A stretch of DNA of 26,669 nucleotides from Candidatus Hermodarchaeota archaeon (GTDB lineage Archaea; Asgardarchaeota; Hermodarchaeia; Hermodarchaeales; Hermodarchaeaceae): positions 1 through 26,669 of the forward strand of contig JAEOTB010000033.1 of NCBI GenBank assembly GCA_016840065.1. Direction: 5' to 3'. The notes below the pieces were generated by a model that saw only the letters and a list, made by a program, of their open reading frames with translations, was not told the origin of the DNA and ran no database searches. The position numbers and the translations under genes were made by a program. Shown piece after piece: positions 8,073 to 16,284 of the stretch (its first letter is position 1; every line of letters begins with the position of its first letter).

Positions 8073-8486
8073 ATGCAGGCTACAGAGCTTCTGGACAAGT
8101 ATCTGAAAGTGGTAAAAACAGCCCCCTCACCTGAAGCCCTTGAGGCTGCAGGCGAAGTCATCGTTGTTCTACACAAGACCAGATGGGCGAGGCTACTATT
8201 GGTGTGGAGGGTGGATGAACAGGAGAAGGTCATCATCGAGGTGGAGGTTTCACTGCCCAAGGTGGTAAAACGCGTCCGGGAATCAAACTTAGATGCTTGT
8301 GGTGATACGGAGGGTGAGATGGGGGAGCTGTTGACAGAGCTCATGAAGCACCAGCAGTACCTGCTTCGTCTCAAGAAGGTGGGCTTTACCTTGGATGTCA
8401 TCCGACAAGACTGTCTGTGGACAGCTTCAGGAGTTTTCACCAAGCAACCCAAACATGAGGTGTTTGAACTCCTAGTTCCGCCTTAG
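8073..8486 (+). CDS. Hypothetical protein
   Basis: 137-aa ATG ORF; TATA-like ATAAATAA at ~8028; divergent from the GNAT gene. Confidence 0.75.
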   Translation: MQATELLDKYLKVVKTAPSPEALEAAGEVIVVLHKTRWARLLLVWRVDEQEKVIIEVEVSLPKVVKRVRESNLDACGDTEGEMGELLTELMKHQQYLLRLKKVGFTLDVIRQDCLWTASGVFTKQPKHEVFELLVPP

Positions 8487-8558
8487 CTGTAGCTAAGCTC
8501 CATTGAGTATTTTGCACCCTCACTAATCTCACGTTTTTTCCAAGGCACCTTGCACCAA

Positions 8559-8690
8559 CAAGGTTATGTACCTATGGAAAAGTATCAATATAAGGTTACG
8601 AAATAAGGCCTGAGGGAAAGGTCCTTGAGACAAACTCCAACCGAGCAACCTACCATAGGACAGCTGCTCATCCAACTTGACTCACACTTT
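8559..8690 (+). promoter_or_regulatory. Promoter plus conserved 5' leader motif, copy 1
   Basis: CAAGGTTATGTAC, then GGCCTGAGGGAAAGGTCCT (8607-8625), ACAAAC, stem GAGCA/TGCTC, CCAACTTGACTC; matches the copy at 15673-15815. Confidence 0.6.
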
Positions 8691-8708
8691 GAGGAGGATG
8701 AATGAGAA

Positions 8709-13478: not shown

Positions 13479-14399
13479 CTATTTTCCTCGTTTTGACCGA
13501 TAGATCAGTAAGAAGATAATGATACAGATCACGATCACAACAGCGACGACAGCGATGATGATTGGCAGATTTGCAGCCGGGTTGATAGCGCCGGTGTAGG
13601 CGGTGGGAGTGGCTGCAAGGCTATAGTCCACTAGAGTGAGGTTACCAGACATGAAAATCTCTGTATAATCCCACATACTGTAAGGATAGAGGTTCACATA
13701 GTAGTCGAAGTTGATCTGGCAAAGGAAGCCGAGGCTCCACTCCCAGATAATCTCAAATTCGACTGTCATGTCCCAATAGCCGCTATAGGGTGGGTAAAAT
13801 ATTGACTGGTTTTCGTAGTACAGATAGTCAAAGCCAATCTTAACGGTACTTAGCTGGTTCAGGCCAACGGTGAAGGTTGGACCTGCCATCACTGGAATAC
13901 CGAATGCCATGTAGGTGTTGTTCTCATAGGGTGGTGAACTCTGTGAGTAGCCAAACTGAAGAGTGTCACCAGGTATAAGGCCTGGTGTAATGTAGACGAT
14001 GTCGCTGAACCAGAATGGCGCGTATTCAGTCCAGTCCATTGGGTTCATGGGGTGGATGTGGAGTATTGTATCTTCGTCATAGTGGTGCATTAACGCTGTC
14101 CAGTTTGACAAACCTGTGTATGGACCGAAGATGTCTGATGGACCGACCCACGTTGCAGTGGCGTTAGCATAGTACATGTCGTCTGTATGGTTCTGGATGA
14201 CGTGGGAAAAGTCTACTTGAATGTCATAGTCATCATCCGGTGGTCCAACTGCATACTTGAACAAGGCGTCAGCTTTGAATTCATAGTCTAGTTGGTCGTT
14301 GTCTGCGGGGAATGTTCCTTGGGAAGCAGCAGGTGTCGCTAGTGAGATCAGTAGAAAGGCGCATAGGGTCAAAGCAAGGATTGGTACTAGTTTTCTCAA
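13479..14399 (-). CDS. Secreted, C-terminally anchored cell-surface (glyco)protein, tandem copy A
   Basis: Signal peptide; Tyr/Asp/Trp-rich ectodomain with several N-x-S/T sequons; C-terminal TM and basic tail RSKRGK. Confidence 0.85.
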   Translation of the reverse strand: MRKLVPILALTLCAFLLISLATPAASQGTFPADNDQLDYEFKADALFKYAVGPPDDDYDIQVDFSHVIQNHTDDMYYANATATWVGPSDIFGPYTGLSNWTALMHHYDEDTILHIHPMNPMDWTEYAPFWFSDIVYITPGLIPGDTLQFGYSQSSPPYENNTYMAFGIPVMAGPTFTVGLNQLSTVKIGFDYLYYENQSIFYPPYSGYWDMTVEFEIIWEWSLGFLCQINFDYYVNLYPYSMWDYTEIFMSGNLTLVDYSLAATPTAYTGAINPAANLPIIIAVVAVVIVICIIIFLLIYRSKRGK

Positions 14400-14479
14400 T
14401 AGTTCTCCCTCAATAGGTACCTAGGTTTTTTTGAGGTAACTTCCTTATTCAGCACTGCTAAGCTAAAAGGCTTTCTCGT
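14376..14479. repeat. 104-bp exact direct repeat (start, SD and promoter), copy 1
   Basis: Identical to 15485-15588 by manual comparison. Confidence 0.9.
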
Positions 14480-14540
14480 AGGCATAATTACGGGTTTAAC
14501 AAGCACAAGTACCAGTTAGAATAGAGAGCAAGGGTCTCAA

Positions 14541-14590
14541 AAGAAAAAAAGAGAAAGAGGGAGGTTTCTAGCCTCCCAAACGCGTTTGGA
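14541..14590 (-). terminator. Terminator of the 14591 gene (duplicated)
   Basis: 14559-14600 is identical to 13447-13488. Confidence 0.75.
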
Positions 14591-15508
14591 CTATTTTCCT
14601 TTCCTTGACCGCCAGTACAGGAAGATTATGATGATAACCACGATAATGATTACAGCGGCAACGGCTGCCATAATGATTGGCAAGCCAGCAGCACCAGCTC
14701 CAGCGCCGATGTAGGCAGCGGGAGTGTCGGTAAGACTGTAATCAACAAGCGTCAGGTTACCAGATGCGAAAATCTCTGTTGGAGCCCAGGGGTCATATGG
14801 CCGAAGGTTAATGTAGTAATCGAAGTTAATCTGGCATAGGAAGCCGAGGCTCCACTCCCAGATAATTTCGAAGTCTACGGTCATATCCCAGTAGTCATTG
14901 CCTGTATATATTGTGTTGTTAGCGTAGTATAGGTAGTCTAAGCCGATTTCGACTGTGTTAAGCAGAGTAGGACCAACGGCGAAGTCTGGACCTTGTGTCA
15001 CTGGAATACCAACAGCCATGTAGGAGTTGTTCTCATAGGGTGGACCACTGCTGTCTGAGTAACCGAGTCTGACACTGTCACCAGGTACAAGACCCGGCTC
15101 GATGAAGAATAGGTCACTCGTCCAGAAGGGCGCGTATTCAGACCAGTCTTCAGGGTTCACCATGATGAGTTGTGGTATTTCTCCAGTTTGATAGTGGTGT
15201 AGGAGTGCGGTCCAGTTTGACAAACCGGTGTATGGACCGAAGATGTCTGTTGGACCGACCCAGGTTGCGGTGACATTAGCCCAGTAGAGGTCACCAGAGG
15301 AGTTCTGGATAACATGGCTAATGTCGACCTCGATGTCATAGTCATAGTCTGGTGGTCCATGTGCAAATTTCATCAGGTAGTCCATCTTGAATTCATAGTC
15401 TAGTCGATCGTTGTCATGGGGGAATGCTCTAGCAGGAATAGGTGTCGCTAGTGTTACTAGAAGGAAGGCGCATAGGGTCAAAGTAAGGATTGGTACTAGT
15501 TTTCTCAA
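14591..15508 (-). CDS. Secreted, C-terminally anchored cell-surface (glyco)protein, tandem copy B
   Basis: Colinear paralog of 13479 (DIFGPYTGLSNWTAL, FEIIWEWSLGFLCQINFDYY, SGNLTLVDYSL). Confidence 0.85.
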   Translation of the reverse strand: MRKLVPILTLTLCAFLLVTLATPIPARAFPHDNDRLDYEFKMDYLMKFAHGPPDYDYDIEVDISHVIQNSSGDLYWANVTATWVGPTDIFGPYTGLSNWTALLHHYQTGEIPQLIMVNPEDWSEYAPFWTSDLFFIEPGLVPGDSVRLGYSDSSGPPYENNSYMAVGIPVTQGPDFAVGPTLLNTVEIGLDYLYYANNTIYTGNDYWDMTVDFEIIWEWSLGFLCQINFDYYINLRPYDPWAPTEIFASGNLTLVDYSLTDTPAAYIGAGAGAAGLPIIMAAVAAVIIIVVIIIIFLYWRSRKGK

Positions 15509-15588
15509 TAGTTCTCCCTCAATAGGTACCTAGGTTTTTTTGAGGTAACTTCCTTATTCAGCACTGCTAAGCTAAAAGGCTTTCTCGT
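15485..15588. repeat. 104-bp exact direct repeat, copy 2
   Basis: Identical to 14376-14479. Confidence 0.9.
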
Positions 15589-15672
15589 GGGCGTTTAATC
15601 CCTTTTTAAGACTCTTGGACGGGTTCTTTGGTGTTTCGGGTGTTTTCTGGCGATGGTTGTGTGTGCCACCAT

Positions 15673-15815
15673 CAAGATTATGTACTTGAACCATGTAAAT
15701 TACCAGGAAACAGGCTATGGCCTGAGGGAAAGGTCCTGAAACAAACCCAGTCCAGCTACCCAATCAGTAACTCAGCTAGGAATCTAATAATGCAGACTGA
15801 CCCAACTGACTCGGG
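15673..15815 (+). promoter_or_regulatory. Promoter plus conserved 5' leader motif, copy 2
   Basis: CAAGATTATGTAC, GGCCTGAGGGAAAGGTCCT (15719-15737), ACAAAC, stem CAGTC/GACTG, CCAACTGACTC. Confidence 0.6.
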
Positions 15816-15861
15816 AATGCTGCTCACCTAGTCAAGGTTGCATCAAGGAGGCTTTCAGGTA

Positions 15862-16284
15862 ATGGCTACTTCCGGTTATCTACGACTTGAAATCAAAGGA
15901 TATAGCATAGAAGAGATAGTGAAAGTTTTACAGCCTAAGTGGTGTGGCTCAGTATTCACCAAGCTCTATGAACACGAGGGAAGAACGGTCCTAGGAATAC
16001 TGATGGGTTTAAAGTATAGTTGGTGGAACGATGCTGAAACAGGCGTTACCATCATCCTGCGCCGTGAACCTTACAAGACTGTATTGGAGGTTATTGGCTT
16101 CGCGGGAAAGCGAGGTTTCGGTGATGGGGGACGGAACAAGAATATAGTGAGGGATGTTGAGAAGATACTAGTCGAGAGGGGGTTCCCCGTTGTAAGGGTC
16201 CTCTTCACCGAGCTTGCACAACATTACAGAGTGGGAGAGGACCTGTACCCGATGATCGAGTCGATACCAGGAGATGAACGCTGA
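15862..16284 (+). CDS. Soluble alpha/beta protein, DUF6054-like; first gene of the membrane-protein operon
   Basis: SD AAGGAGG at 15845 favours ATG 15862; the pattern KY.......VT........T..E.I...G..G....G....V..VE.IL recalls DUF6054 (from memory). Confidence 0.6.
   Translation: MATSGYLRLEIKGYSIEEIVKVLQPKWCGSVFTKLYEHEGRTVLGILMGLKYSWWNDAETGVTIILRREPYKTVLEVIGFAGKRGFGDGGRNKNIVRDVEKILVERGFPVVRVLFTELAQHYRVGEDLYPMIESIPGDER

Follow-up and report, generated by a model that had tools for sequence, protein, structure and literature searches.

Genes and shared blocks at the two loci

The window, i.e., the whole stretch of 26,669 nucleotides analyzed here, comes from an uncultured archaeon with an assembly of 2.59 Mb in 131 contigs (84% complete). 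Two unrelated membrane-protein loci about 7 kb apart and on the same strand carry a common intergenic element upstream, and the first gene of each is preceded by a strong SD (Table 1). The product of gene A carries a signal peptide and combines an ectodomain of the parallel beta-helix type, in which N-glycosylation sequons abound, with a polytopic membrane domain at the C-terminus; it matched the Pfam families Beta_helix (3.7e-27) and NosD (5.1e-26) and the NCBIfam para_beta_helix repeat. At the second locus, gene B encodes a 140-aa soluble protein, and its start was corrected to the ATG at 15862. It opens an operon of ten genes, in which tightly coupled orphan membrane proteins follow, including 4-TM paralogues (paralogy among 17595, 18032, 18454, and 21099). 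None of the operon proteins reached the cut-off for a Pfam or NCBIfam family.

Table 1. Features of the two loci (window positions) and copies of the family F repeat (positions on the contigs named).
Feature	Position	Strand	Sequence and description
Upstream gene	8073-8486	+	137-aa orphan protein directly upstream of copy A
T6 run	8534-8539	+	After upstream gene 8073-8486; candidate oligo-T terminator
Block 1, both copies	A 8553-8571, B 15667-15685	+	CACCAnCAAGrTTATGTAC, 17/19 identical
Block 2, both copies	A 8607-8635, B 15719-15746	+	Exact 19-mer GGCCTGAGGGAAAGGTCCT, then (T)GArACAAAC; 27/29 matches
Block 3, both copies	A 8670-8683, B 15800-15812	+	AyCCAAC(T)TGACTC, 12/13 matches
Copy A, block 1	8553-8571	+	CACCAACAAGGTTATGTAC; candidate BRE/TATA-like core promoter, TATA-like TTATGTAC at 8564-8571
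Copy A only, second promoter-like site	8576-8593	+	GGAAAAGTATCAATATAA; PWM score 6.84, in non-conserved spacer
Copy A, block 2	8607-8635	+	19-mer GGCCTGAGGGAAAGGTCCT plus TGAGACAAAC; weak hairpin GGCCU/AGGUC, 7-nt loop
Copy A, short stem-loop	8643-8669	+	GAGCA 8643-8647 / TGCTC 8665-8669; closes variable insert
Copy A, block 3	8670-8683	+	ATCCAACTTGACTC; 12 matches with copy B
Gene A	ATG 8709, to 10895	+	SD GAGGAGGA 8691-8698; 728-aa membrane protein
Copy B, block 1	15667-15685	+	CACCATCAAGATTATGTAC; candidate BRE/TATA-like core promoter
Copy B, block 2	15719-15746	+	19-mer GGCCTGAGGGAAAGGTCCT plus GAAACAAAC
Copy B, stem	15748-15799	+	CAGTC 15748-15752 / GACTG 15795-15799; closes 42-nt variable insert
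Copy B, block 3	15800-15812	+	ACCCAACTGACTC
Gene B operon	ATG 15862, to 21491	+	SD GGAGG 15847-15851; ORFs
Family F copies	L058:1240-1410, L062:2000-2170, L060:6250-6420, L067:810-980, L084, L092-L103	minus (L084)	

Copy A (8553-8683) and copy B (15667-15812), both on the + strand, have three co-linear blocks in common. In block-wise global alignments of A versus B, 0 of 500 shuffles reached block 1, 2, or 3, while the segments separating the blocks (the 35/33-nt spacer after block 1 and the 34/53-nt variable insert after block 2) and both outer flanks were similar only at the level of shuffles. Since the blocks lie far above chance and the spacers at chance, constraint on islands rather than a recent copy is indicated, and the pattern favors selection acting on every block. 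The 19-mer GGCCTGAGGGAAAGGTCCT was found at 8607-8625 and 15719-15737 and nowhere else in the assembly, the nearest further site having 3 mismatches.

A preliminary description of this DNA had reported a conserved element in two copies upstream of two transcription units, an identical 19-mer in both of them, and a variable insert closed by different but complementary arms. All this was confirmed, and block 1 was recovered as well, although it reaches 6 nt further 5' than had been given. The claim that the downstream genes are non-homologous and do not represent a simple gene duplication also held, as BLASTP detected no similarity between the downstream proteins of A and those of B.

Several coding readings were considered for the region. 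Small ORFs run across the element on either strand. The candidate upstream ORF on the + strand starts with TTG in copy A (8625-8705), where copy B has CTG, and in block 3 the reading frame is displaced by a 1-nt indel; the codon scores of the + strand candidates (-0.31 and -0.33) are those of non-coding sequence. On the minus strand, the ORFs 8529-8675 (A) and 15572-15763 (B) both read GPFPQA over the 19-mer, with blocks 1 and 2 discordant in frame. The coding readings were rejected because the 2-nt difference in spacer length and the 1-nt indels put blocks 1-3 in different frames. The upstream gene of copy A, by comparison, is a real gene, with a codon log-odds of +0.14 for its + frame versus -0.24 for the minus-strand ORF. 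As a candidate regulator it was discarded, having no match in Pfam, NCBIfam, or the Atlas.

The region 15508-15861 is at the same time the divergent partner of leader copy B. Two surface-protein genes in tandem, 13479-14399 and 14591-15508, lie on the minus strand; 14399-14590 and 15508-15861 are their upstream regions and share ~64 exact 17-mers. These represent the duplicated promoter and 5' end of the tandem genes. On the minus strand, GAGAAAGCCTTTTAGCTT at 15586 was the best promoter site of 15508-15861.

Promoter profile and predicted transcription start sites

The genome is archaeal, since TBP is encoded in it, and a BRE/TATA profile was therefore derived from its own tRNA and gene upstream regions. 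The tRNA upstream regions displayed a clear GGAAA(A)-N2-3-TTTAAA pattern (e.g., C78:106541 and C69:19429 in this genome, G000). An iterative profile from 420 gene upstream regions plus the tRNA upstream regions yielded the consensus aGAAAAGcTTTTWAAgg (BRE and TATA). Its motif start peaked 50-70 nt 5' of SD-led start codons, and by this positional peak the profile was validated. The modal spacing implies typical leaders of ~15-30 nt and few leaderless genes. For the annotation of this lineage, the genome-specific profile is useful in its own right.

When both intergenic regions were scanned with the resulting PWM, block 1 was the sole promoter-like site whose position coincided between the aligned copies. 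In copy A (CAACAAGGTTATGTACCT) the score was 6.02 at 8556, which is within the top 0.16% of genome positions. In copy B (CATCAAGATTATGTACTT) a score of 3.25 was obtained at 15670 (top 0.7%), a weak match and the best + strand site from 15620 to the gene. Among the best sites of real upstream regions, the two scores fell at the ~34th (A) and ~8th (B) percentile, and the TATA-like part of the block (TTATGTA) is weak. Judged by its fit to the genome's own profile and by its consistent position, block 1 looks like an archaeal core promoter, in copy B weakly so. It is better read in this way than as a part of the leader, where it had been placed before; that earlier description followed a bacterial logic, which does not suit an archaeal genome. 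Scans for bacterial sigma-70 promoters and intrinsic terminators, which are not applicable to an archaeon, found nothing, and the latter gave no terminator-like site at the leaders.

A second promoter-like site, GGAAAAGTATCAATATAA in the spacer behind block 1, is found in copy A and has no counterpart in copy B. It slightly outscores block 1 of copy A, and its BRE part matches one tRNA-Arg promoter of the same genome. A start from this site would fall inside the 19-mer.

An archaeal TATA box lies ~28 nt 5' of the start site (PMC8553660). Counting 26-28 nt past the TATA-like center of block 1, we predict starts near 8593-8597 and 15707-15711, i.e., 10-14 nt before the 19-mer. The corresponding leaders would measure ~113 nt (A) and ~152 nt (B) and thus exceed the length implied by the modal promoter-to-ATG spacing. 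Going by the promoter profile of the genome itself, the transcribed leader probably includes the 19-mer and all sequence 3' of it. In copy A, the T6 run is likely the archaeal oligo-T terminator of the upstream gene, and given such a terminator a new transcript would have to begin 3' of it.

RNA structure and composition of the leaders

The preliminary description had called the leader structured, which folding did not support. Whole-leader MFE z-scores of -0.57 and +0.77 equaled those of shuffles, and RNAalifold, applied to n=2 sequences, returned 0 compensatory pairs and a single consensus helix, the invariant 5-bp hairpin of the 19-mer. This hairpin contains one G-U pair, which is functional in + strand RNA only. 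Its energy was -7.6 kcal/mol in copy A (z -1.1) and -5.7 kcal/mol in copy B (z -0.3), neither beyond shuffles. Pairing of block 2 with any downstream segment was not better than in shuffles; the pseudoknot proposed earlier between CUC(A/G) and UGAG, a pairing of 4 bp, fared the same. Block 3 could pair with the SD region at -12.6 kcal/mol in copy A (p 0.046), a result not reproduced in copy B (p 0.39).

For the whole window, 0 Rfam matches were obtained at the gathering score. At E up to 10 only noise was seen, with matches of E 1.7-2.8 around copy A. A K-turn or box C/D RNA was considered and rejected: by inspection, the 19-mer lacks tandem sheared G-A pairs, a 3-nt bulge, and ordered C (RUGAUGA) and D (CUGA) boxes, and the only C/D RNA match in Rfam was sR52, which with E 2.6 fell far short of the gathering score. 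Overall, evidence for a structured RNA in the leaders is thin.

Two features hint at a function on the RNA level, namely a 5-bp stem of differing sequence beside block 3 and the composition of the leaders. The 3' arm of the stem abuts block 3 in both copies, and 3 of the 5 pairs are changed on both sides between them. Shuffling gave a joint P of 0.0008 (strict) to 0.01 (lenient) for a stem adjoining block 3 in both copies, in a post hoc comparison, so that the stem pointing to the RNA strand is suggestive only. Beyond the 19-mer, the two leaders are G-poor and consist of 68 and 65% C+A, a level reached by only 2-3% of intergenic 60-nt windows and 3-6% of sense-strand upstream windows. This bias is strand-specific and implies little structure.

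Direct repeats flank the stems of both leaders, TCCAAC in copy A (8636-8641/8671-8676) and ACCCA in copy B (15744-15748/15800-15804). They could represent a recognition motif that occurs twice in single-stranded form, or else the trace of a tiny insertion.

Distribution of the element

A third copy in the genome was not recovered by exact or fuzzy matching (allowing up to 4 mismatches), by BLAST, or by nhmmer --max. No copy with up to 1 mismatch was found among 60 relatives, BLAST of 18 genomes of the family gave no match better than E 0.3, and the pattern GAGGGAAAGG-N3-6-GARACAAAC matched none of 399 other genomes of the phylum. Viral contigs gave no matches either. The exact 18-mer GGCCTGAGGGAAAGGTCC had 10 matches in 596 Gb of genomes, where ~17 were expected by chance, and 21 in metagenomes; the flanking blocks were absent at every 18-mer match in both collections. 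Five of the matches belong to a multi-copy intergenic repeat, family F, which has this same 18-mer in some of its copies. Family F was rejected as a relative of the module, as its flanks are unrelated and the segment holding the 18-mer is variable, with CCTAGGGGAAAGG, CCTAAGGGAAAGG, and others as alternative forms. Because the 10 matches in the genome collection do not go beyond the number expected by chance, we take the shared 18-mer to be a coincidence.

Orthologues of gene B in three genomes of the family (G007, G004, G015) possess a canonical TATA ~45 nt before the ATG, short ordinary leaders, and no module, and the region upstream of the orthologue in G003 is unrelated, too. The long leader would thus have been acquired in this lineage. 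For the gene B protein, two homologues only were found among 5.8 billion proteins, and no orthologue of gene A exists in the family, where the best match reaches 38% identity. A spread of two copies in one genome is unlike that of a riboswitch class. What we observed is a real cis-regulatory module, private to one genome, ordinary in kind and without a known family.

Possible roles of the shared module

We tentatively favor, at chances coming close to even, a lineage-specific promoter and leader module shared by both loci for their co-regulation, with a leaning toward recognition on the RNA level. Block 1 would serve as a weak BRE/TATA-like core promoter at both loci, and transcription from the predicted starts would give C+A-rich, G-poor, largely unstructured leaders in which the 19-mer with GArACAAAC (at ~+11 to +40), the stem closing the variable insert, block 3 as another conserved element in single-stranded form, and the SD follow in this order. 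The sharply bounded islands may be the recognition sites of one or more factors that co-regulate the two loci. Where the blocks are transcribed they may be read in the RNA, with protein binding affecting stability or translation, and we consider this somewhat more likely than reading in the DNA. Several points weigh against the module as favored here: the number of copies is two, folding is at shuffle level, the stem statistic is post hoc, block 1 of copy B is a weak promoter match, the 8576 site of copy A scores slightly better than block 1, and short exact patches are fairly often shared by intergenic regions of this genome. From the candidate regulatory RNA of the preliminary description, the shared element and a predicted transcribed leader remain, while the aptamer-like structured RNA does not.

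Recognition at the DNA level would turn the 19-mer, an imperfect dyad of GGCCT-N7-AGGTC, into a repressor operator at or after the start, and the RNA would have no role; blocks 1 and 3 would bind this repressor or a different transcription factor. Archaeal repressors often bind just after the start, and exact conserved sites near it are typical of those that block polymerase recruitment. An exact identity of 19 nt near the predicted start is in accordance with this, as are the start inside the 19-mer that the 8576 site of copy A would set and the absence of a signal in RNA folding. The resemblance to archaeal BRE/TATA core promoters with adjacent factor sites lies in block 1, which fits the genome's own profile in both copies, and in a conserved element just past the predicted start. 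The module differs from them by the weakness of its TATA-like part and by a conservation that runs at least 100 nt into the predicted leader. Moreover, the dyad is 4/5 as DNA but complete as RNA with the G-U pair, conservation spans 130-150 nt in three blocks, and a duplex operator leaves both the strand-specific C+A bias and the compensated stem unexplained. No regulator gene was recognized adjoining either copy. We regard a DNA operator as on the unlikely side, with an appreciable chance of being right. A more trivial origin was also weighed, in which recombination or patchy gene conversion produced a copy of a promoter region that is now decaying, so that the blocks mean nothing beyond the basal promoter. 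Local duplications and patches shared between intergenic regions are indeed abundant in the genome, and just 7 kb separate the copies, which lie on the same strand. A decaying copy should, however, show graded similarity, whereas three islands of ~90-100% with unequal spacers at shuffle level were found, and the downstream genes are unrelated. This origin appears improbable to us.

Very improbable, in our view, is a mobile-element remnant, either as MITE or IS ends or as attL/attR repeats around a 7-kb island. Two direct repeats on one strand do flank 7.1 kb of accessory-looking genes, and the TCCAAC repeat flanks small inverted arms in copy A. Nevertheless, only two copies exist, the arms comprise just 5 bp over a stretch of 27 or 52 nt, and terminal inverted repeats of useful length were not found. 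Against att sites speaks that the similarity is divided into three blocks on both sides of a core and that both flanks are partly shared, which does not resemble a single att core. Pfam detected no integrase or transposase domain in those genes between A and B that were scanned, and viral contigs lacked matches. A metabolite-sensing riboswitch or another widespread class of structured cis-regulatory RNA, the likeness to which had been proposed before, agrees with the position of a long predicted 5' leader upstream of the SD of both genes and with the small hairpin and the compensated stem. The module nevertheless differs from riboswitches and other Rfam cis-regulatory families in having no covariance-model match, no stable conserved fold, and no phylogenetic spread, given a G-poor and largely unpaired sequence that is limited to two copies and is absent from the phylum and family genomes and the viral contigs searched. 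In its widespread form this reading is refuted already, and we consider the whole class extremely unlikely.

Returning to the promoter and leader module, two leader-based systems were used for comparison, the 5' hairpins of the bacterial ompA type and archaeal L7Ae, which binds a K-turn in its own leader. What the module would share with these is a small hairpin close to the predicted 5' end (~10-14 nt away), a long leader before the SD, and the occurrence on two messages. The hairpin of the module differs by its low stability (-5.7 to -7.6 kcal/mol) and by showing no K-turn features on inspection, and the comparison serves as a lead only. Its boldest extension would be an Asgard-lineage RNA regulon, in which a protein-recognized leader couples the surface beta-helix protein with the orphan membrane operon post-transcriptionally. 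The invariant hairpin, the single-stranded motifs CAAAC/CCAAC, and the variable stem-loop would be its parts. We give such a regulon a small, though not negligible, chance; if true, it would be a first example of a leader-based regulon in the Asgard phylum.

Should one factor recognize the blocks, a surface beta-helix protein would be linked to a ten-gene orphan membrane operon. This would provide a first functional hint for the operon genes and a defined cis element as bait. Being private to one genome, the module says little on general biology.

Other shared intergenic patches and the family F repeat

With contig starts set aside, the internal intergenic regions of the genome form 68 pairs with a common exact match of at least 17 nt; ~7 are expected by chance over all intergenic DNA. 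In 43 of the 68 pairs, 12 or fewer 17-mers are shared, and some pairs represent tRNA genes or promoters of paralogues. Small duplicated promoter or leader patches thus seem common in this genome. The module pair is set apart from the other shared patches by three ordered islands before non-homologous genes. The 127-nt overlaps seen at many contig ends are a k-mer artefact of the assembly.

The family F repeat is a conserved intergenic sequence of ~170 nt without an Rfam match and was found in two high-GC uncultured bacterial MAGs (5 and 8 copies) and in several metagenome contigs (Table 1). Internal segments of it look hairpin-like, with compensated changes such as ATGTGC..GCACAT versus ATATGT..ACATAT, and CTAGGGGA..TCCCCTAG. 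Family F may represent a MITE or a small RNA not described before.
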